Assembly: GCF_040219535.1 (NCBI RefSeq)
Contig: NZ_JAVJSH010000002.1
Span: 16,370-80,369 of the forward strand
From: Botrimarina sp.
GTDB lineage: Bacteria > Planctomycetota > Planctomycetia > Pirellulales > Lacipirellulaceae
Reading direction: 5' to 3'
DNA length: 64,000 nucleotides
Position numbers and translations under genes: made by a program
In this document: piece after piece, positions 1,481 to 43,317 of the stretch
Layout of the letters: each line of letters opens with the position of its first letter
Numbering within the stretch: the first letter of the stretch is position 1
The notes under the pieces: model-generated
The model's database searches: none
What the model was told of the DNA's origin: nothing
What the model saw: only the letters and a program-made list of their open reading frames with translations

Positions 1481-1683
1481 CCGGCGTGGGCTCGGCCGCG
1501 GCGGCCTAACCGGCACAACCCGCCCGGCGTTCGCGCGGGCTCGAGCGACGCTGGCCGTTATCCGCGTCGACTCTCGTCATCGGATCACGCCGTGCCGCCA
1601 GCGTGACTTACGTTTTCTCACCGCTCCCCAGCCGAGGGGGCGGCCGAGCGAAGTACGCCAGCGGACCGACCGAGGATAGTGCC

Positions 1684-4431
1684 GTGGAAGACAACGAATT
1701 GCTCGCCGACTTCGTCGTCGAGGCGACCGAGCACCTGTCGGATATCGAGAACCAGTTCCTCGCCATCGAGCAGGCCGCACCGGCCGTCGACGTGGGGCTC
1801 GTCAACGAGGTGTTCCGCGCGATCCATTCGATCAAGGGCGCCGCCGGGTTCTTGGGGCTGCGAACGGTCAACGACCTGGCCCACAACCTCGAGAACGTGC
1901 TGAACATGATGCGGAACGAGGAGCTCGCGCCCTCTTCCACGATCGTCGACGACATGCTCAAGGGCGCCGACGCGCTGAAGTGCCTGATCGACGACGTCGA
2001 GAACTCGAATTCCTCCGACGTCTCGGAGCACATCGCGGCGCTCGAAAGGATCGCGGCCGCGGCGATGCGGGCGGGCGACGAAGCCCCCGCGCCGGCCGAA
2101 CAAGCCGCGACACCGGCCGCCACGCCCGCGCCGATCGACCGCACGCCGACCGACGAGGAGCTCGAAGCCGCTATCAACGCGAAGCTGGCCGAAAAGCTGA
2201 GCGCCAAAAAGGCCGCCGCCACGCCGCCGGCCGCAGCGCAAGCCGAACCTGCGGCCGCAGCGCCGACCGCAGCGCAAGCGGAACCGGCGGCCGACCCCAT
2301 CGACGCGGCGAAGACCGACGCGCCCGACAAGGCGCCGAAAGCCGCTCCCGAGGCGCAGATCCGCGTGGCGGTTGGGGTGCTCGACAGCCTGATGAACCTC
2401 GCCGGCGAGCTGGTGCTCAGCCGCAACCAACTGCTGCAGGCCGTCTCGACCCAAGAGAAGAACGGCCTCGAAGCGATCTCGGCGCGGCTGGACCAGATCA
2501 CCAGCGAGCTGCAAGAAGCGATCATGCAGACCCGCATGCAGCAGATCGGCACGGTTTTCGGCCGCTTCCCGCGCGTCGTACGCGACCTGAGCAGCAAGCT
2601 CGGGAAGCAGTGCGAGTTGGTCGTCGAGGGCAAAGAGGTAGAGGTCGACAAGACGATCGTCGAAGCGATCGGCGACCCGCTGACCCACCTGGTGCGCAAC
2701 TCGATCGACCACGGCATCGAGACGCCGGAGGACCGCGAAAAGGCCGGCAAGGCCGCTGCCGGCACGCTCCACCTGAAAGCCTGCTACCAGGCCGGCAAGG
2801 TGCGGATCGAGATCAACGACGACGGCGCCGGCATCGACCCCGCCAAGCTCAAGGCCAAGGCCCTCGCCAAGGGGATCATCACCCCCGAGCAGGCGGAGCA
2901 GATGAGCGACCGCGACGCGATCCGGCTGATCTTCGCGCCGGGCTTCTCCACCGCCGAGAAGGTGACCGACGTGTCGGGCCGCGGCGTCGGGATGGATGTC
3001 GTCCGGACCAACATCGCGAGGCTCGGCGGCACGGTCGACGTGGAGTCGGAGTTGGGACAAGGCTCCAACATCACCGTGACGCTGCCGCTCACGCTGGCGA
3101 TCATCCCATCGCTGATCGTCCAAGTCGGCTGCGACCGCTTCGCGATCCCGCAGGTGAACATCGCCGAGCTCGTGCGTGTGCGGCAGAACGAGCGGGAGGA
3201 AAAGCTCGGCCGCGTCAAGAACGCCGAGGTGCTCCGCCTGCGCGGCCAACTGCTGCCTCTGGTGCGCCTGCGCGAGACGCTGGGCTGCCAGCCCGCCGAG
3301 GGCCGCGTGCAGGGCAACGCGACCGGCGCCACGAACGTGATCGTGGTCGACACGGGCCAGACGCGTTTCGGGCTGGTCGTCGACGCGTTGCACGACTCCG
3401 AGGAGATCGTGGTCAAGCCGCTCGGGCGCCACCACAAGGAGTGCCGCCAACTGGCCGGCGCGACGATCCTCGGCGACGGGCACGTCGCGTTGATCCTGGA
3501 CATCGCGGGGATCGCCGCGGAGGAAGAGTTCCGCAGCGAAGAAGAGCTCAACGAGGCGGAGCAGTCCCCCGAGCGACGCACCGACGAGCAGGTCGACACG
3601 CAGTCGCTGCTGCTGTTCCGCAACAACGAGAAGGACCTGTTCGCGGTGCCGATGGACATCGTCGCCCGCCTCGAGCGGGTCCGCGTCGACCAGATCGACT
3701 CGGTCGCCGGCCGCGAGGTCCTCCAGTACCGCGACGCCACGCTGCCGCTGATGCGGCTGGAGAACTGTATCGCGGCGGGCGTGGGGGACTACGCGGAGAG
3801 CGTGTACGTGGTCGTGTACGAGGTGCGGGGCCGCGAGGTCGGCCTGCTCGCGCCGATCCTGGAGGACATCCGTGAGGTCACCGCGAGCGTCGACACCGCC
3901 ACGTTCCGAGAGCCCGGCGTCATCGGTTCGCTGGTGCTGAACTCGCGGACGGTCCGCCTGATCGACCTGTTCGAGGTCACCCGGCTCTCGCACCCGGACT
4001 GGTTCGCCGGCGACACGCACGACGAGTTCGCCGCGGACGACCCACCACTGATCTTGCTGGCGGAGGACTCCGCGTTTTTCCGCTCGCAGGTGAAGTCGAT
4101 CTTCGAAGAGTCCGGCTACCGCGTCCGCGATTACGAAGACGGCCAACTCGCCTGGGACGCGATGGACTCCCACGGCGAGCCGTTCGACGTCGTCGTGACC
4201 GACATCGAGATGCCGAACATGAACGGGTTCGAACTCTGCGAACGGGTCAAGGCCGACCCACGCTTCGCCGGCACGCCGGTCATCGCACTGACGTCGCTCG
4301 CCGGGTCGGCGGACGTCGAGCGCGGCATCCGAGCCGGCATCGACGATTACCAGATCAAGATGGACCGCGACAAGCTGCTGACCGCCATCCAGAACTTCGC
4401 CGGGTGCGCCGCCCAAGGGAGCCACGCATGA
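1684..4431 (+). CDS. cheA: hybrid chemotaxis histidine kinase CheA (Hpt, dimerisation, HATPase, two CheW-like domains, C-terminal receiver)
   Basis: The Hpt motif is FRAIHSIKGAAGFLG. HATPase N/G boxes are HLVRNSIDHGIE, DDGAGID and GRGVGMDVV. There are two CheW-like segments, and the receiver is ILLAEDS..VVTDIEMPNMNG. The start is set at GTG 1684 behind GAGGA, but the ORF is open from 1603. Confidence 0.85.
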   Translation: MEDNELLADFVVEATEHLSDIENQFLAIEQAAPAVDVGLVNEVFRAIHSIKGAAGFLGLRTVNDLAHNLENVLNMMRNEELAPSSTIVDDMLKGADALKCLIDDVENSNSSDVSEHIAALERIAAAAMRAGDEAPAPAEQAATPAATPAPIDRTPTDEELEAAINAKLAEKLSAKKAAATPPAAAQAEPAAAAPTAAQAEPAADPIDAAKTDAPDKAPKAAPEAQIRVAVGVLDSLMNLAGELVLSRNQLLQAVSTQEKNGLEAISARLDQITSELQEAIMQTRMQQIGTVFGRFPRVVRDLSSKLGKQCELVVEGKEVEVDKTIVEAIGDPLTHLVRNSIDHGIETPEDREKAGKAAAGTLHLKACYQAGKVRIEINDDGAGIDPAKLKAKALAKGIITPEQAEQMSDRDAIRLIFAPGFSTAEKVTDVSGRGVGMDVVRTNIARLGGTVDVESELGQGSNITVTLPLTLAIIPSLIVQVGCDRFAIPQVNIAELVRVRQNEREEKLGRVKNAEVLRLRGQLLPLVRLRETLGCQPAEGRVQGNATGATNVIVVDTGQTRFGLVVDALHDSEEIVVKPLGRHHKECRQLAGATILGDGHVALILDIAGIAAEEEFRSEEELNEAEQSPERRTDEQVDTQSLLLFRNNEKDLFAVPMDIVARLERVRVDQIDSVAGREVLQYRDATLPLMRLENCIAAGVGDYAESVYVVVYEVRGREVGLLAPILEDIREVTASVDTATFREPGVIGSLVLNSRTVRLIDLFEVTRLSHPDWFAGDTHDEFAADDPPLILLAEDSAFFRSQVKSIFEESGYRVRDYEDGQLAWDAMDSHGEPFDVVVTDIEMPNMNGFELCERVKADPRFAGTPVIALTSLAGSADVERGIRAGIDDYQIKMDRDKLLTAIQNFAGCAAQGSHA

Positions 4432-16219: not shown

Positions 16220-17281
16220 TCAGACAGTCGCAAGCAAGGCCAGCAGCTCGTCGTTCTGTTCGGGCGTGCCGACCGAGATCCGCAAGCCGTCCTCGCCACC
16301 CGCCCAGCCGGGGTGGTGGATATAGCGGACCAGCACGCCCTTGTCGCGGAGCCGCTGGTAGATCGCCGGGTGCTCGCCCGATGGGTGGGTCGCCCAAACG
16401 AAGTTCGCGTGCGAGGGGGTCGGTTGGTAGCCGGCCTCGGCGAGGCCGTCGGCCAGCCGCGTCCGCTCCGCCACGACCCTCGCCACGTTCTCCGCGAGCC
16501 AAGCCTGGTCGCCGATCGCTGCCGTCGCGCCGGCGATCGCCAGCGCGTCGCAGTTGTAGCTGTCTTTGACCTTGGCGAGCTGCTCGATCACTTGCGGCTG
16601 GGCGACCACGTAGCCGAACCGGAGCCCGGCGAGCGCGTAGCTCTTGCTGAGCGACCGGCTGACCAGCACCCGCTCGTTGGTCCGAACCAGGTCCAGGCAG
16701 TTGCTCGGCGCAAAGTCCGCGTAGGCCTCGTCGACCAACAGCGGGAACGGGGCCGCGTCGGCGATCGCGGCCACCTCGCCCGGGGCCAGGTGCGTGCCCG
16801 ACGGGCTGTTCGGGTTGGCCAAGTAGGCCAATCGGACGTCGGCCGCGGGGGCGGTGAACCCGTAGCCGAGCGTCCAGTCGGCCTCATAAGGCACAACGTC
16901 ACACCGCGCGCCCTGGATCTCCGCCAGCGTGCGGTACAGCACGTACGACGGCCTCGGGTACCGCACCGCCTGGCCTTGGCCGACGAACGCGCGGGTGACA
17001 ATCGTGAGGATGTCGTCGCTGCCGTTGCCGCAGAGGATCCAGTCGGGGGTGATCTCCGGGTTGTCCTCGCGCAGCACCTCCGCCGCCCGCTCGCGGAACG
17101 CACTGGCGGTCGGGTCCGGGTAACGCCGCAGCGAGTCGGCCGAGGCCGCGCGGATCGCCTCGAGCACCTTTGGCGAGGGCGGGTAGGGGTTCTCGTTGGT
17201 GTTGAGCTTAACGAGCTTCGTCCCCTTCGGCTGCTCGCCGGGGACGTAGCCCGTCATCTGCTCGATCGCTTCGCGGAACAT
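16220..17281 (-). CDS. hisC: histidinol-phosphate aminotransferase
   Basis: A class-II aminotransferase pattern is present (KLNTNENPYPPSP, SRSLSKSYALAGLRFGY). The start is set at MFREAIEQM. Confidence 0.9.
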   Translation of the reverse strand: MFREAIEQMTGYVPGEQPKGTKLVKLNTNENPYPPSPKVLEAIRAASADSLRRYPDPTASAFRERAAEVLREDNPEITPDWILCGNGSDDILTIVTRAFVGQGQAVRYPRPSYVLYRTLAEIQGARCDVVPYEADWTLGYGFTAPAADVRLAYLANPNSPSGTHLAPGEVAAIADAAPFPLLVDEAYADFAPSNCLDLVRTNERVLVSRSLSKSYALAGLRFGYVVAQPQVIEQLAKVKDSYNCDALAIAGATAAIGDQAWLAENVARVVAERTRLADGLAEAGYQPTPSHANFVWATHPSGEHPAIYQRLRDKGVLVRYIHHPGWAGGEDGLRISVGTPEQNDELLALLATV

Positions 17282-26454: not shown

Positions 26455-27468
26455 CTACAAGGTCCGGTCCATCGCGTCGGCGATACGCCGGCACTGGCCC
26501 ATCATCGCTTCGAACGCGTCGCACGAGAGGGTCTGGTAGCCGTCGCTCTTGGCGTTCTCCGGGTCGGGGTGGACCTCGACGATCAAGCCGTCCGCGCCGG
26601 CGGCGATCCCCGCCCGCGCCATCGCCGGCACCAGGTTCGTGTGGCCGGTCCCGTGGCTCGGGTCCACCACGACCGGCAAGTGGGTCTTCTGCTGCAGGTA
26701 GGGGACCGTGGTGAGCGGCAGCGTGAAGCGCACGTGCGACTCGAACGTGCGGATGCCGCGCTCGCAGAGGATCACGCGGCCGTTGCCGCCGTCGAGGATG
26801 TACTCGGCGGCCAGCAGCAGCTCGTCGACCGTGGCGCTGGGGCCCCGTTTGAGCAGCACCGCGGCGTTGGCCTTGCCGCAGGCCTCGAGCAGCCGGTAGT
26901 TCTGCATGTTCCGCGCGCCGATCTGCAGCACGTCGGCGTACTCCGACACGAGCGGCACGTCCTCCGGCGAGACGACCTCGGTCACGATCGCCAGGCCGGT
27001 CTCTTCGCGGGCCTTGGCCAGCAGCTTGAGCCCCTCTTCCTTCATGCCCTGGAAGCTGTAGGGGCTGGTGCGCGGCTTGAACGCGCCGCCCCGCAGCGCG
27101 GTGGCGCCGGCCGCCTTGACGGCCTTGGCGGTCGCCACGATCTGCTCTTCGCTCTCCACGCTGCAGGGCCCGGCGATCACGCCGATCGACTTGCCGCCCA
27201 GCTCGAGCGACCCCGCGCGCACGACGGACGTCTCCTCGTGCGCCTCGCGGCTGGCGAGCTTGTACGGCGCGAGGACCGGCATCACGTTGTCCACGCCCGG
27301 AGCGGACTCGAGCGACCGCACGCCGTTGACCCGCTCGTCGCCGATGGCGGCGACCACCGTTCGCTCGGTTCCACGGAGCACGTTCGCCTTGAGGCCGAGG
27401 GCTTCGACGTGCTCGACCAGGTGCTGCAACTGTTCTTCGGTAGCCGAGCGTTTCATCACGACGATCAT
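26455..27468 (-). CDS. aroF: 3-deoxy-7-phosphoheptulonate (DAHP) synthase, type I-beta with N-terminal ferredoxin-like regulatory domain
   Basis: [68 protein letters not shown] matches the Thermotoga-type DAHPS/KDO8PS fold. Confidence 0.9.
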
Positions 27469-27543: not shown

Positions 27544-27590
27544 AAACAAAAAAACCCCGGGGCGCCTGAGGGGGGGGGCGACCCGGGGTT
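27544..27590 (-). terminator. intrinsic terminator between the leader ORF and aroF
   Basis: On the minus-strand RNA, AACCCCGGGUCGCC (27590-27577) pairs with GGCGCCCCGGGGUU (27566-27553). That gives 13 of 14 pairs, a 10-nt C-rich loop and a run of seven U ending at 27548. Confidence 0.8.
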
Positions 27591-27617
27591 CGGTGATCTG
27601 CCTAACTGAAAGCGGCG

Positions 27618-27698
27618 TTACACACGACCCTCCGCGCCCCGGCTTCCGTAAAAGAAGCCGAGGAAGGTAAACCAGAAGTAGGTCGCTGCCGCTTGCAT
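27618..27698 (-). CDS. candidate 26-aa aromatic-rich leader peptide MQAAATYFWFTFLGFFYGSRGAEGRV
   Basis: The ATG is at 27698 and the TAA at 27618-27620. Eight of the eleven residues 7-17 are F/Y/W. The ORF lies upstream of DAHP synthase and is followed after 27 nt by a terminator. Confidence 0.55.
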   Translation of the reverse strand: MQAAATYFWFTFLGFFYGSRGAEGRV

Positions 27699-27704
27699 CC
27701 CTCG

Positions 27705-27733
27705 AGTATCACTCCGCTTAGGAAAGAAAGCAA
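27705..27733 (-). promoter_or_regulatory. candidate sigma70-type promoter TTGCTT-17 nt-GATACT for the leader transcript
   Basis: On the minus strand the -35 is at 27733-27728 and the -10 at 27710-27705. The -10 ends 6 nt before the leader ATG, so the transcript would be leaderless or nearly so. This rests on a pattern match only. Confidence 0.3.
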
Positions 27734-27819
27734 GCGGAAACGGCCCCCGGGTCGCCGCGGCCCGCTCGGCCGCTAGAATCCCAGCGAGAGCCCCCGCCCG
27801 TCGTCCCGACGCAAAGTCT

Positions 27820-28506
27820 ATGACCCCCACTCGATCCCTCGCCGCCGTGGCCGCACTTGCCGCCGCGGCGTTTGGAGCAGTTTCCCTTATGAGTGACGCC
27901 GCCCCCGCCCGCGACGACCTGTCCGCCGCGAAAGCGACCCCCGCCGACTCCGACCGCCCTACCCGCGGCGCCGCTGTGGCTACTTTCGGCGGCGGCTGCT
28001 TCTGGTGCACCGAGGCCGTGTTCGAGGCGACGGCCGGTGTCGACTCGGCCGTGTCGGGCTACGCCGGCGGCGACACCCCCGATCCGACCTACGAGCAGGT
28101 TTGCTCCGGCACGAGCGGCCACGCCGAGGTGATCCAGGTCACCTACGACCCGGGCAAGGTCTCGTACGAGCGGCTCCTCGAGATCTTCTTCCGCACCCAC
28201 GACCCGACGACGCTCAACCGCCAAGGCGCCGACGTGGGCACGCAGTACCGGAGCGTCGTCTTCTACCACGACGAGGACCAACGCCAGACCGCCGAGCGCG
28301 TGAAGGCAGCCCTCAACGAGTCCGGCGCGTACGACGACCCGATCGTCACTCAGGTCGCGCCGCTGGAGAAGTTCTACGAAGCCGAGCCCTACCACCAGGA
28401 CTACTTCGCGAACAACCCGGGCCAGGGTTACTGCCGCGCGGTGATCGCTCCCAAGATGGACAAGTTCCGCAAGGCGTTCGCCGATCAGCTCAAGCCGGCC
28501 GACTGA
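27820..28506 (+). CDS. msrA: peptide-methionine (S)-S-oxide reductase MsrA with signal peptide
   Basis: The MsrA core [24 protein letters not shown] is present. The N-terminus is hydrophobic. Confidence 0.9.
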
Positions 28507-30965: not shown

Positions 30966-34721
<3,756 letters not shown>

Positions 34722-34860
34722 AGGTACCAGCGGGTGGGGGTGCGAACGAGGATCGGCTCTTCGGGACCCCGCGCGAGCCGCCCGAACACCGGGCCGCGCC
34801 GTGGATCCCAACGGGGGAGCAGCCCCCTATTATCCCCAGACCGCAGGGCGTTCCCACCCG

Positions 34861-34938: not shown

Positions 34939-35385
34939 TCAGGCCGTCGCGGCGGCGGCCGTGACCAGCCGCCGACCGGCGACCCACCCGCGGCAGTTCT
35001 CGGCGCCGCAGCGGCACTCGAACGGCCGGAAGAGCACGTCTTCGGTGTGGTTGTAGTCCATCGTGAGCAGGTCGCCCGGCTCGATGTCCTTCAGAGCGTG
35101 GTAGAGCCTGGTTTCGGGGTCCAGACGCGAGTTCGGATCGCAGCTGTGCAACGTCATGCCGGCGAACCAGGGGTCGTCCAGGTGCAGCCCGGGGCCGACC
35201 TGGAGCGAGTGCTGGGTCATCCGTGTGGTGAGTCTGCCGTTCATCCTGAAAAGCACGTCGCCGGCCAGGAATTCCCGCAACACCACGACCCCTCGGCCGC
35301 GGTTTTCATCCACGTCGATGACGCGGAAGTCGCCCGCACGCGGCTCGTCGGCCACCACGGGCAAGTGTTGGGGGTAAATTCTCAT
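34939..35385 (-). CDS. SET domain protein (putative lysine methyltransferase)
   Basis: RGRGVVVLREFLAGDVL.., LHSCDPN, TMDYN and a post-SET-like CRCGAENCRG are present. The ATG at 35385 overlaps the upstream stop (ATGA). Confidence 0.7.
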   Translation of the reverse strand: MRIYPQHLPVVADEPRAGDFRVIDVDENRGRGVVVLREFLAGDVLFRMNGRLTTRMTQHSLQVGPGLHLDDPWFAGMTLHSCDPNSRLDPETRLYHALKDIEPGDLLTMDYNHTEDVLFRPFECRCGAENCRGWVAGRRLVTAAAATA

Positions 35386-40008: not shown

Positions 40009-43000
40009 ATGGTCACCCGACCGATGCCGACCCCTTCCGTGCTCTTCTCCTCCCCGGTCGCTAGCCGCTGGTTGGGCGTGCTGCTCGTCGCGCTAGCGGC
40101 GGCCACGCTGTGCGGCTCGCCGGCGCCGGCCCAAGAGAACGCCGATACGCCGGCCGCCACAGCCGAGCCAGCGGCCGAGCCAGCGGCGGAGCCAGAGGCT
40201 GCCGACACGCCGCCGGCCGAGGCCGCCGCGGAGACCGACGCCGACACGCCGGCCGTCGATCCAGCGCCCGAAACGCCGGCCGAGGAACCGGTCGACACGC
40301 CGGTGATCGAGCCGGCCGCCGCGCCGCCGTCGGAGGTCGCAGCCGGCGCCGATGTGGCCGAAGCCGACCCGGCCGAAGGGGAGCCCATGGCCGGCGTGCC
40401 GTCGCCAGAAAACCGCGACCTCGCCGCGGGCGACGCGGCCGAGGCCGCCATCGATGAGGCCGACGCCGGCGGTGGCAGCGCGCTGACGTGGCTCGTGACG
40501 CTGGCGGCGATCGTCGTGCCGATCCTGCTGGGCAACTGGCTCGCCAAGGCGTGGAGGATGCCGGAGAAGGCGTGGCGGATCGCCACCGTGCTGACCTCGT
40601 TGTCGGTGGCCGCCCTCTGCGTAGCGACCGGCCAGTTCAAAGGCGGCCCCGACCTGGCCGGCGGCATCACGCTCGTGTACGAGCTGGCCGACCCGGACCT
40701 GGTCTTCGACCCGCTCGACCCCGACCAGCCGCCGGCCGACGAGGCCGACGACGCCGAAGGCCCGCGGCGCCGCGTGGACATGGAGCAGTTGATCGCCGCG
40801 CTGAAACGGCGGATCGACCCGGCCGGGACCAAGGAGGTCTCGATCCGCAACTACGGCGGCGCGATCGAGATCATCATCCCGAAGGCCGGGCCGGACGACC
40901 TGCAGTTCATCAAGCGGCGGATCACCGACCTGGGGCAGCTCGAGTTCCGGATCGTCGCCGACCGGCGCTGGAGCGAGGACCGCAACATCATCGAGGCGGC
41001 CGCCAACCTCGGCCCCAGCGAGAAGATCGTGTCGATCGGCGGAGCGACGCGCGCCAAGTGGGTCCCCTACGACACCGAGAAGTTCCCCGTCGAGGACCCG
41101 CGGCTGGTCACCCGCGAAGCCAACGGCCGCGACGAGATCCTCGTGCTGATGGACCGCTGGGACGTCACCGGCGAGTACCTGACGGGCGTGTCGAAGTCGT
41201 ACGGCGACCTGGGCCGCCCGGTCGTGAACTTCAACTTCGACTCGATCGGCTCGGCCAAGTTCGGCCGCTTCACCGGCGAGAACCTCCCCAACCCGGCCAC
41301 GCCCGACGTGAAGCGTAAGCTGGGCATCCTGCTCGACGACACGCTGCTCTCCGCGCCGGAGCTGAACGACCGGATCACGGGCAGCGGCCAGATCACGATC
41401 GGCGGGCCGAACGTCGAGCAAGAGGTCGACAACCTGGTCGGCATCCTCAACGCGGGCAGCCTGCCGGCCGCGCTGGTCAAGACTCCAATCAGCGAAGAGC
41501 AGGTCAGCCCCACCCTCGGCGCCGAGACGATCCAGCGCGGCACGTTCGCGATCGGCGTGTCGCTCGCCGCGGTGCTCCTGTTCATACTCGTCTACTACCG
41601 CTTCGCCGGCCTCGTGGCCTGCCTCGCGCTGGCGGCCACGCTGCTGCTGGTGCTCGCCGCGATGGTCGTCATGCAGGCGGCGTTCACGCTGCCCGGCCTG
41701 GCCGGCCTCGTGCTGACGGTGGGCATGGCGGTCGACGCGAACGTGCTGATCTTCGAGCGGATCCGCGAGGAACTCGCCAAGGGGGCCGGCCTGCGGATGG
41801 CGATCCGCAACGGCTTCGGCAAGGCCACCACGACCATCATCGACGCGAACGTCACCACGCTGATCGCGGCGGTGATCCTCTACAACGTCGGCACCGGGCC
41901 GATCAAGGGGTTCGGCATCACGCTGTTCCTCGGCATCGTGATGTCGATGTACACCGCCATCTTCTGCGCCCGCACGGTGTTCGACATCGCCGAGCGGCGC
42001 CGCTGGATCAAGACGCTGAAGTTCGGCTCGATCCTCGGCGAGACCAACATCGACTTCATCGGCAAGCGTGTGCCGGCGATCGTGTTCTCTGTGCTGTTGA
42101 TCGCGGCCGGCTTGGTCGGCGTGTTCGGCCGCGGCGAGAACCTGCTGGACATCGACTTCACCGGCGGCTCGAGCGTCACGTTCGTGCTCGACGAGCCGAT
42201 GACATTTAGCGAAGTGAACGAGAAGGTCCGCTCGACCGAGCTGGGGGATAAGAACCTCACCGTGATCCAGAGCGGTGAGACCGGCCTGCGGTTCACCGTG
42301 AACAGCGGCATCGACGACGTCGAGCGTGTCGAGGCCGTGATCGCCGAGGAGTTCGGCGACTCGCTGAAGAACTACGCGCTGGCGATCGGCGAGCCCGAGG
42401 CTTTCGAGGAGCGTGGCGGCACGACCGGCACGACCCTGCCGCTCACGTTCAACGAGGGAGAGGGCTTCGGCGAGAACGACGGCCTCACGCACGACGCGCT
42501 CGTGGAACGGATCGAGGAGATCCTCGCCCAGTCCGGCCGGCCCGGCGTCGAGCCGCAGCTAGAGAACCCCGCGTACACGGCGGGCAGCAGCCAACGGTTC
42601 AAGGAGTGGACGATGCGCCTCGGCTTGCCGGCCGAGCAAACCGTCGAGGTCGCCGAGGCCCTGCAAGCGGAGCTGGCCGCCGAGCCGCTGTTCCCGCTGG
42701 CGAGCAAGATCGGCGCGCGGGTCGCCGGCGACCTGCAAGAGAAGGCCGTTTGGGCGGTCGTCCTCAGCCTGATCGGGATCATCGCGTACCTGTGGTTCCG
42801 CTTCCAGAACGTGTACTACGGCGTCGCGGCGGTGATCGCGCTGATCCACGACGTGCTGGTCACCCTCGGCGCGATCGCCCTGTCGGCGTGGGTCGTGTCG
42901 GCCGTGCCGCCGCTCGCCACGGCGCTGCAGATCGACGCGTTCCAGATCAGCCTGCCGATCCTCGCGGCCTTCATCACGATCATCGGCTACTCGCTGAACG

Positions 43001-43317
43001 ACACGATCGTCATCTTCGACCGCATCCGCGAGGTCCGCGGCAAGAGCCCGCGCCTGACCGCCGAGACAGTCAACAAGTCGATCAACCAAACCCTCAGCCG
43101 CACGGTGCTGACCTCGCTCACCACGTTGATCGTGGTCGTGGTGCTGTACTTCTTCGGCGGCGCCGGGATCCACGCGTTCGCGTTCGCCCTGGTGGTCGGC
43201 GTGATCGTCGGCACCTACTCCACGGTGTTCATCGCCACGCCGGCGCTGCTGGCGCTGGCCGGCACCGACGACGACGGCACCGCCGCCACGGCCGGCAACC
43301 CCCGGGCCGCGGCGTAA
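40009..43317 (+). CDS. secDF: fused protein translocase subunits SecD-SecF with about 160-aa acidic Pro/Ala-rich N-terminal extension
   Basis: The SecD periplasmic domain and its 6 TM helices are followed by the SecF domain and its 6 TM helices (LGIDFTGG-type motif IDFTGGSSVTF, and IVIFDRIRE twice). Confidence 0.9.
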   Translation: MVTRPMPTPSVLFSSPVASRWLGVLLVALAAATLCGSPAPAQENADTPAATAEPAAEPAAEPEAADTPPAEAAAETDADTPAVDPAPETPAEEPVDTPVIEPAAAPPSEVAAGADVAEADPAEGEPMAGVPSPENRDLAAGDAAEAAIDEADAGGGSALTWLVTLAAIVVPILLGNWLAKAWRMPEKAWRIATVLTSLSVAALCVATGQFKGGPDLAGGITLVYELADPDLVFDPLDPDQPPADEADDAEGPRRRVDMEQLIAALKRRIDPAGTKEVSIRNYGGAIEIIIPKAGPDDLQFIKRRITDLGQLEFRIVADRRWSEDRNIIEAAANLGPSEKIVSIGGATRAKWVPYDTEKFPVEDPRLVTREANGRDEILVLMDRWDVTGEYLTGVSKSYGDLGRPVVNFNFDSIGSAKFGRFTGENLPNPATPDVKRKLGILLDDTLLSAPELNDRITGSGQITIGGPNVEQEVDNLVGILNAGSLPAALVKTPISEEQVSPTLGAETIQRGTFAIGVSLAAVLLFILVYYRFAGLVACLALAATLLLVLAAMVVMQAAFTLPGLAGLVLTVGMAVDANVLIFERIREELAKGAGLRMAIRNGFGKATTTIIDANVTTLIAAVILYNVGTGPIKGFGITLFLGIVMSMYTAIFCARTVFDIAERRRWIKTLKFGSILGETNIDFIGKRVPAIVFSVLLIAAGLVGVFGRGENLLDIDFTGGSSVTFVLDEPMTFSEVNEKVRSTELGDKNLTVIQSGETGLRFTVNSGIDDVERVEAVIAEEFGDSLKNYALAIGEPEAFEERGGTTGTTLPLTFNEGEGFGENDGLTHDALVERIEEILAQSGRPGVEPQLENPAYTAGSSQRFKEWTMRLGLPAEQTVEVAEALQAELAAEPLFPLASKIGARVAGDLQEKAVWAVVLSLIGIIAYLWFRFQNVYYGVAAVIALIHDVLVTLGAIALSAWVVSAVPPLATALQIDAFQISLPILAAFITIIGYSLNDTIVIFDRIREVRGKSPRLTAETVNKSINQTLSRTVLTSLTTLIVVVVLYFFGGAGIHAFAFALVVGVIVGTYSTVFIATPALLALAGTDDDGTAATAGNPRAAA

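Follow-up and report, generated by a model that had tools for sequence, protein, structure and literature searches.

In the 64-kb stretch of the Botrimarina sp. contig NZ_JAVJSH010000002.1 analysed here (64,000 nt; positions 16,370 to 80,369 of the forward strand; hereafter the window, with coordinates counted from its first nucleotide), the DAHP synthase gene aroF is preceded by a short open reading frame (ORF) dense in Phe, Tyr and Trp codons and by an intrinsic terminator. This arrangement is very probably a ribosome-mediated leader-peptide transcription attenuator of DAHP synthase, which would sense charged tRNA-Phe, tRNA-Tyr and tRNA-Trp. The initial annotation of the window had proposed such an attenuator upstream of aroF, and the proposal, whose testable elements were all borne out, is supported by conservation of the elements in related loci, by their co-variation and by alternative folds. 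With less assurance, we lean toward the broader view that this is the first recognised member of a widespread, undescribed class of leaderless triple-aromatic (Phe+Tyr+Trp) attenuators of type I-beta DAHP synthase across Planctomycetota.

In the proposed mechanism, transcription would begin with the A of the leader ATG or an adjacent nucleotide and yield a leaderless mRNA, onto which a ribosome would load immediately. When any aromatic aminoacyl-tRNA is scarce, this ribosome would stall within the codons for YFWFTFLGFFY and leave a G-rich segment of the ORF (region 2, codons 19-24) free to pair with the emerging C-rich strands of the terminator. With region 2 paired, the terminator hairpin would be blocked and RNA polymerase would read through into aroF. 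When the three tRNAs are charged, the ribosome would cross region 2 to reach the stop codon, the hairpin and its U7 tract would form, and transcription would end some 80 nt short of aroF. Translation of the ORF, the start site, termination at the hairpin and the way read-through follows the supply of aromatic amino acids are all predicted features of this scheme.

Read from 27760 down, the minus strand carries the promoter, the leader ORF, the terminator and the DAHP synthase gene, in that order. The individual features are as follows.

27728 to 27734, minus strand: -35 element CTTGCTT (TTGCTT at 27733-27728), read from the sequence; CTTG does not vary among the five closest loci
27705 to 27710, minus strand: -10 element GATACT, its end 6 nt ahead of the ATG, read from the sequence; ATACT is invariant in the five closest loci
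27618 to 27698, minus strand: leader ORF of 26 codons plus TAA (ATG at 27698, TAA ending at 27618), peptide MQAAATYFWFTFLGFFYGSRGAEGRV, read from the sequence; analogous ORFs in 66 loci
27648 to 27680, minus strand: control codons 7-17, YFWFTFLGFFY, with 5 Phe, 2 Tyr and 1 Trp, read from the sequence
27637 to 27663, minus strand: hairpin 1:2, CCUCGGCUUCU / GGAAGCCGGGG, codons 12-21, -17.9 kcal/mol, z = -4.9
27628 to 27642, minus strand: region 2, the putative antiterminator strand CCGGGGCGCGGAGGG, codons 19-24, from masked folding and from complementarity in relatives
27548 to 27590, minus strand: intrinsic terminator with a G+C-rich stem of 9+4 bp, a 1x1 internal loop, a 10-nt loop and U7, from folding
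26455 to 27468, minus strand: type I-beta DAHP synthase gene (aroF), 337 aa, with an N-terminal ferredoxin-like regulatory domain, from profile matches

The coordinates and counts given in the initial annotation for the ORF, hairpin, U7 tract, promoter and aroF start all proved correct on re-reading the sequence.

Conservation of the Leader ORF and Terminator

The eight Phe, Tyr and Trp residues among residues 7-17 of the leader, which the initial annotation had pointed out and the sequence confirms, make this stretch the single maximum of aromatic density across the six frames of the window; the next best value is 6 of 11. A stretch with this value, the second-richest YLWFRFQNVYY (42787-42819, plus strand), was considered as a leader and rejected: it lies inside a 1102-aa ORF (40009-43317) and presumably resembles a SecD/SecF-type membrane segment.

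Related DAHP synthase loci were drawn from 80 species-representative genomes and 80 metagenome contigs. Genome counts refer to 79 loci (78 upstream regions in the tile test) and metagenome counts to 67 usable loci. A short leader ORF was called at five or more aromatic residues per 11, within an upstream reach of 450 nt, and a terminator, between the ORF and the DAHP synthase gene, at a folding energy of -12 kcal/mol or lower. Stretches with at least six aromatics in 11 residues occur in 39 of the 78 forward upstream regions, compared with 1/78 reverse strands and 25/1768 control tiles. An aromatic-rich short ORF precedes DAHP synthase in 50/79 genome loci, and a terminator accompanies it in 46 of these 50, as against 7 of the 29 loci without the ORF (Fisher p = 7e-10). 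In the metagenome set, the ORF is found in 25/67 loci. The combination that the initial annotation expected upstream of aroF orthologues, a short F/Y/W-rich ORF together with a terminator, is present in 46/79 genome loci and 18/67 metagenome loci.

That annotation had let its proposal stand or fall with close relatives. All four closest relatives examined, with DAHP synthases 81-88% identical to that of the window, carry both the leader ORF and the terminator in the same architecture, with the following leader peptides.

L085 (DAHP synthase identity 88%): MSDVGYDLCEFTSFRGFFYESRGAGDRS
L081 (87%): MSISYWPSYRFTFTRFFFKNSGPMSVS
L084 (85%): MSGAYRYGFWFAFAGAFFTPPAPGGCA
L083, from the isolate Posidoniimonas corsicana (81%; element at L083 1233-1390, about 330583-330740 of contig SIHJ01000002.1, GCA_007859765.1): MSGKYWQFFWFSFTGFFYGNLGAGGCA

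A covariance model built from 26 loci offers a further view of the distribution. It has exactly one match in the 64-kb window, which is the leader element itself. Among held-out loci, its full-length plus-strand matches lie upstream of DAHP synthase or of a pheA-aroF operon, and its minus-strand matches are only partial and fall on the palindromic terminator stem. The model also recovers leaders that the 450-nt rule had missed (L008 and L017). The top match (L017 2777-2935, 102 bits) has a leader, MNRFWAGYFWFYFSPRGRGAG..., that runs past the expected stop because of one extra G in its GGGCCGGGAG stretch relative to L024. This extra G reflects either an error in the assembly of the metagenome-assembled genome or a real frameshift.

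Carriers include loci labelled Pirellulales, Planctomycetales, Gemmatales, Isosphaeraceae and Phycisphaerae, with leaders in loci of Phycisphaerae/Phycisphaerales (L062, L064), Gemmataceae (L056, L057, L060) and Gemmatales (L013). The element is not confined to planctomycetes and is also present in Chloroflexota and Calditrichota loci. Similar elements are found in loci labelled Anaerolineae, Anaerolineales or Chloroflexia (L073 1433-1566, L075 1577-1741, L076 262-408), with MKNITFNAFYFYFYFGFRKRKPLAAFN and MYRQCNFYSYYYFTPCEGRLLHDGWGSV as examples of leader peptides from loci with these labels, and a Calditrichota-labelled locus (L069 2814-2975) carries an aromatic leader and a terminator. In L075, an ORF with a prephenate-dehydratase-like C-terminus stands between the element and aroF.

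Three loci (L040, L046 and L059) display a distinct strong terminator type upstream of DAHP synthase, for example AGGAGCCCCGGCGCGTATCTCGCCGGGGCTCCTC followed by a T run. Short ORFs with 3-4 aromatic residues, Trp included, occur in L040 and L046 (MLEFFHWVALSWRDVLEPACG; MKSGRRDVRIGIYWVTLSWRDGLEPAGG). These three loci may represent a diverged leader subtype.

Composition of the Leader Peptides

The leader peptides collected from 66 loci are 18-47 aa long (median 26) and freely variable in sequence, and they hold 5-9 aromatic residues. Phe, Tyr and Trp are all present in 59/66 leaders and Trp in 62/66; this co-occurrence was not built into the collection, since the selection rule scored total aromatics only. 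The retention of composition in peptides that otherwise vary supports the view that selection acts on the amino-acid identity of the leader.

Codon usage was compared between the leader ORFs of 45 loci (the window and a subset of L001-L071) and their own DAHP synthase genes. The Phe codon UUU accounts for 69% in the leaders and 24% in the adjacent genes (p = 4e-23), and the Tyr codon UAU for 54% and 29%, respectively (p = 5e-5). This preference could tune the sensitivity of stalling, or could serve to avoid Cs that pair with the G-rich region 2. Synonymous choice among the aromatic codons of the leaders is free to vary.

Two local features recur around the aromatic run. The residue after it is mostly Thr or Ser, often as F-T-G or F-T-x, and FT is present in 35/62 leaders (Thr or Ser examples are L002, L003, L052, L060, L062, L083, L122 and L147); this may reflect RNA pairing (ACC with GG) or a peptide-level effect. 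Closer to the end, a Shine-Dalgarno-like GGAG is located 3-14 nt before the leader stop codon in 29/62 leaders, with peaks at 5 and 8 nt. Its counterpart in the window is GGAGG in codons 22-24 (27628-27632), just after region 2. Such a motif might keep the ribosome in place over region 2 as translation terminates, or might join an alternative pairing.

The window leader frame remains open upstream to 28010 (27618-28010, minus strand), which gives a potential 130-aa 'hypothetical protein', and in L081 a spurious 72-aa call (1628-1846, plus strand) spans the leader promoter. Over-extended frames of this kind cross the promoter and overlap the divergent neighbour msrA on the opposite strand. These spurious calls arise because the G+C content keeps the leader frame open in the upstream direction. 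For annotation, the problem is that gene callers either miss the 26-codon leader ORF or stretch it into a spurious upstream protein.

Intrinsic Terminator

The terminator hairpin, AACCCCGGG-U-CGCC / GGCG-C-CCCGGGGUU, begins 27 nt after the leader stop. A hairpin with one mismatch followed by U7 at 27590-27548 had been described in the initial annotation, and both sequence and folding bear this out: the fold has an energy of -24.7 kcal/mol (z = -3.5), and 0/200 shuffles are as stable. The window, with 70% G+C, contains 17 runs of T5 or longer on both strands and only three clean terminators of hairpin plus U-tract, the leader terminator among them. In the terminator consensus of 26 loci, 8/11 pairs display compensatory changes.

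Neither the terminator nor the promoter was called by the automated scanners. The rule-based terminator scanner allows a loop of up to 8 nt, compared with 10 nt here, and the consensus promoter scanner has a threshold of 9 matches, compared with 8/12 here. Both misses result from scanner thresholds, not from absence of the elements.

Another terminator of the window (34914-34860, minus strand; -46.9 kcal/mol plus a T run) sits 5' of a 1281-aa ORF (30966-34811). It was rejected as an attenuator: it follows the stop, at 34939, of a minus-strand ORF whose C-terminus we take to be SET-domain-like, and is an ordinary 3' terminator.

Promoter and Predicted Leaderless Transcript

Upstream of the leader, the promoter elements are spaced as TTGCTT, 17 nt, GATACT, 6 nt, ATG. 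From this spacing the initial annotation had suggested a leaderless transcript, and the suggestion gains from the relatives, in which the -35/-10 pair is conserved 6-7 nt before the ATG. When the five closest loci are aligned, TTT..CTTG and ATACT are invariant, and CTTG recurs among the 50-nt stretches upstream of leaders in relatives. A -10-like hexamer NANA[AC]T (GATACT, CATAAT, CACAAT and similar) is located 6-7 nt before the ATG in 22/45 ATG-initiated leaders, and TTG is found in the -35 zone of 22/22 loci with such a correctly placed -10 box. A Shine-Dalgarno-like 4-mer stands ahead of the leader in only 3/45 ATG-initiated leaders. Because the -10 box lies 6-7 nt before an ATG without a Shine-Dalgarno sequence, this conserved promoter geometry supports the prediction of a leaderless leader mRNA, starting at or next to the AUG.

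Alternative Folds in the Window

Masked folding of the window sequence points at two exclusive structures. When region 1 is masked, the fold (-43.4 kcal/mol) joins CCGGGGCGC to GCGCCCCGG in the terminator 3' arm and GAGGG to CCCUC in the loop. At an earlier point, while the 3' arm is still to be transcribed, the partner of CCGGGG in region 2 is CCCCGG in the terminator 5' arm. When the A site of the masked ribosome is placed at codons 10-15, the equilibrium minimum free energy fold of the window is the antiterminated one. The terminator is the fold obtained when the ribosome is absent, when its A site is at codons 7-9 or 16-17, and when it stands at the stop codon. Hairpin 1:2 is predicted to sequester the start of region 2 when codons 12-15 are free of the ribosome.

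In the original description of the antiterminator, region 2 can pair with the 5' arm and the loop of the terminator. The loop part of this description holds, as GAGGG:CCCUC, and is joined by co-variation in relatives. The main partner of CCGGGGCGC in the best antiterminated fold of the window is, however, the terminator 3' arm, not the 5' arm.

Predicted Antiterminator Pairing and Ribosome Dependence in Related Loci

In relatives, the 3' part of the leader ORF makes the best partner for the terminator 5' arm. This partner segment starts a median of ~8 nt past the last aromatic codon, and ~15 nt lie between its end and the end of the stop codon. Examples are the pairing of AGGGUCGCGGGGCCG with GGCCCCGAGACCU in L005 (-26.5 kcal/mol), of CGGUCCAGGGCCG with AAGGCCCUGGACC in L036 and of CGACAGGACCCCGGGCCG with GGCCCCGGGUCCUGUC in L039. 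The recurrent peptide C-terminus GRGAGG is the translation of this G-rich antiterminator strand.

Compared with shuffles, the pairing of leader and 5' arm has a mean z of -2.4, with z < -2 in 24/46 loci. In a swap test, cognate pairs of leader and terminator reach 0.66 of the perfect-duplex energy and swapped pairs 0.54 (permutation p <= 2e-4). A MAFFT alignment of 26 sequences has 68% of cells paired, as opposed to 47-49% with the partner slid by one column, and 10/12 antiterminator pairs in it display changes on both sides.

The equilibrium probability of the terminator was uninformative about ribosome position, the terminators being too stable, and nascent-transcript folds were used instead, in which the RNA begins at the 3' edge of the ribosome footprint and ends with the terminator loop. 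With the ribosome on the aromatic codons, 73-79% of the 5'-arm stem is sequestered, and at least 50% of it in 45/45 loci. With the ribosome at the stop codon, the sequestered share is 23% (at least 50% in 7/45 loci), a contrast that is partly built in, as masking removes region 2.

Besides this built-in component, several points weigh against the proposed switch. In the window itself, region 2 and the 5' arm pair no better than they do in shuffles (z = -0.10; nascent fold z = -0.75), because 70% G+C lets almost anything pair. We propose the antiterminator of the window on the basis of masked folding and of analogy with relatives. Region 2 of the window ends ~12 nt before the stop, so that a ribosome at the stop covers its last few nucleotides only. 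In most relatives, the terminator dominates at equilibrium whatever is masked, and the switch would therefore have to be kinetic. A conserved 1:2 anti-antiterminator was not detected in relatives (mean z = -0.2), and for ribosome-free nascent RNA the prediction is an antiterminated fold in 37/45 loci, unlike in E. coli trp. About one third of the planctomycete loci have no leader within 450 nt, and at least one of these (L008) has a leader further upstream. The design looks like a two-hairpin attenuator that would rely on immediate ribosome loading of a leaderless mRNA.

The DAHP Synthase Gene and Its Neighbors

The gene downstream of the terminator, taken for DAHP synthase from the beginning, is identified as such by Pfam (DAHP_synth_1, 5.6e-76; DAHP_snth_FXD, ferredoxin-like, 1.9e-22) and by NCBIfam (PRK08673, 7e-146). 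Its ATG at 27468 lies 79 nt past the terminator U-tract, and its product shares 86% identity with the DAHP synthase of Botrimarina hoheduenensis and 81% with the one of Posidoniimonas corsicana. The window comes from a relative of these two genera, which belong to the Lacipirellulaceae (Pirellulales). The ferredoxin-like FXD domain is the feedback-regulatory domain in this class of DAHP synthase. Downstream of aroF lies a convergent 673-aa ORF, and the DAHP synthase gene is therefore monocistronic. The upstream neighbor is divergent, and hence the leader terminator serves no upstream gene.

27820 to 28506, plus strand: msrA, divergent upstream neighbor (PMSR, 1.6e-68)

The msrA synteny around aroF is repeated in L081, L084 and L085.

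Alternative Explanations

Promoter, ORF and terminator together make a complete unit of ~150 nt, and this unit might be an independent small gene, encoding a small RNA or a hydrophobic micro-protein, with aroF transcribed from a separate downstream promoter. Room for a second promoter is available, as the distance between terminator and DAHP synthase ranges from 26 to >260 nt and reaches ~500 nt in L008; in the window, a weak TTGCTT-17-GAAATC pair follows the terminator. The unit is nevertheless always found on the same strand and directly upstream of DAHP synthase or of a pheA-aroF operon, across several phyla, whereas the upstream neighbors differ (msrA in the window, L081, L084 and L085; a glycosyltransferase in L083). 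The peptide is conserved in its aromatic composition only, which is typical of a sensor rather than of a functional protein, and a separate gene would have no use for complementarity that co-varies between the terminator arm and the 3' part of the ORF. We consider such a gene very unlikely.

A real attenuator could also be read by something other than the ribosome, such as a metabolite-binding RNA, a tRNA in a T-box-like manner or a TRAP-like protein, with the aromatic ORF being incidental. Two-hairpin logic without a conserved 1:2 pairing indeed resembles many attenuators controlled by riboswitches or proteins. Searches of Rfam 15, however, gave no relevant family match between 26000 and 29500 of the window at E <= 10, with Phe_leader, Trp_leader, T-box and riboswitches included, and no match at the gathering score in 20 related loci; a Pseudomon-1 match in the window is noise (23.8 bits against a gathering score of 50). 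RNAalifold on the relatives returns the terminator only and no conserved structure upstream of region 2. The features conserved there are instead an ATG where the 5' end is predicted, a frame that stays open, and codons for Phe, Tyr and Trp among which synonymous choice is free, making a non-ribosomal sensor very improbable.

A third possibility concerns what the ribosome itself would respond to. The leader might act as a TnaC-like arrest peptide, which senses free aromatic amino acids in the exit tunnel rather than charged tRNA. The recurrent local motifs (FWF, and [FYW]-T-G after the run) and the Trp in nearly every leader would fit such a peptide, but sequence and length vary widely and composition alone is conserved. 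Moreover, ligand-induced stalling of the TnaC type would turn a biosynthetic gene on when its amino acid is plentiful, a logic that does not suit DAHP synthase. An arrest peptide hence appears highly unlikely.

Finally, a chance coincidence of ORF and hairpin without function, imaginable at 70% G+C, where long open frames (here up to 28010) and stable hairpins are common, is effectively refuted by the comparative data, the composite recurring in >60 independent loci and joining, in the window, the highest aromatic density of 64 kb to one of only three clean U-tract terminators.

Implications

Gene regulation in Planctomycetota is little known, and the ribosome-mediated attenuator proposed here would be, in the searched literature, the first leader-peptide attenuator found described for the phylum. 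If the proposal is true, it offers a testable switch at the entry (committed) step of aromatic amino acid synthesis, which integrates all three aromatic amino acids. Control would then be layered, being transcriptional through the attenuator and allosteric through the ferredoxin-like domain. The element also indicates that leaderless mRNAs and intrinsic terminators are functionally used in these bacteria.

Such an attenuator would require a ribosome within ~100 nt behind RNA polymerase. That transcription is separated spatially from translation in Gemmata is a debated claim (Gottshall et al. 2014, as cited in PMC5394234). Since the leader is kept in loci labelled Gemmataceae and Gemmatales and needs a close ribosome, it bears on this claim. 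If the attenuator operates as proposed, its conservation in Gemmataceae-labelled loci would be genetic evidence for physical transcription-translation coupling there.

Comparison with Known Systems

Full-text searches returned no leader-peptide attenuator described for Planctomycetota, in agreement with the initial annotation, which knew of no such description for planctomycete-like genomes; a 2010 survey by Lopatovskaya et al. may hold a prior mention. The only related return of the Planctomycetes literature searches is a statistical survey of distances between leader genes and structural genes (PMC4833913). In Actinobacteria, a survey of 2005 had detected no regulatory RNA element for genes of Phe or Tyr (PMC1262725).

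Classical leader-peptide attenuators are summarised in PMC11802643. Like pheL-pheA, pheM-pheST and trpL-trpEDCBA of E. coli, the planctomycete element combines a short ORF with cognate codons, a terminator and an exclusive antiterminator that would depend on ribosome position, and more read-through when charged tRNA is scarce is likewise proposed here. Several differences set it apart from the E. coli phe and trp leaders. There is no Rfam or sequence relationship, and the planctomycete leader would sense three amino acids at once. Its mRNA is apparently leaderless and has no Shine-Dalgarno sequence, region 2 is located inside the ORF and not after the stop codon, and a conserved 1:2 anti-antiterminator is not detectable in the planctomycete loci. 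The target is a common-pathway enzyme, not a terminal branch. Leaderless leader ORFs as such are known in Actinobacteria.

One of the two closest functional parallels is found in Corynebacterium glutamicum, where the leader peptide aroR (Phe-Tyr-Phe) lies upstream of the aroF operon (Neshat et al. 2014, as described in PMC11802643). According to that description, Phe limitation leads to ribosome stalling and more read-through, and Tyr gives no response (PMC11802643). Both systems place an aromatic leader peptide upstream of a DAHP synthase gene. The aroR leader belongs to Actinomycetota and has a three-residue motif, whereas the planctomycete leaders, compared with it by description only, hold 5-9 aromatics and nearly always Trp.

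A second parallel is the uORFC-13-1 motif upstream of Acholeplasma aroF, a computational upstream ORF with promoter boxes, a start codon, Phe codons and a terminator, for which attenuation has been proposed (Brewer et al. 2021, PMC8632094). The motif is described from Acholeplasma and environmental sequences only, with a ribosome-binding site and 'at least one' Phe codon arising from a U run (PMC8632094). Here, too, the ORF is located just before a terminator ahead of the DAHP synthase gene aroF. Compared by description, the planctomycete leaders differ from it in having a mixed F/Y/W run, no Shine-Dalgarno sequence and no Rfam match.

The integration of several amino acids by one leader peptide is itself familiar from E. 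coli, where the leaders of ilvGMEDA (Leu, Val and Ile) and thrABC (Thr and Ile) act in this way. These systems concern other amino acids and another pathway, share no sequence relationship with the planctomycete element and have Shine-Dalgarno-led translation. They likewise represent multivalent leaders for amino acids made by the regulated operon. The mechanism proposed for the planctomycete aroF leader is in itself already known: it is classical leader-peptide attenuation in its multivalent form.

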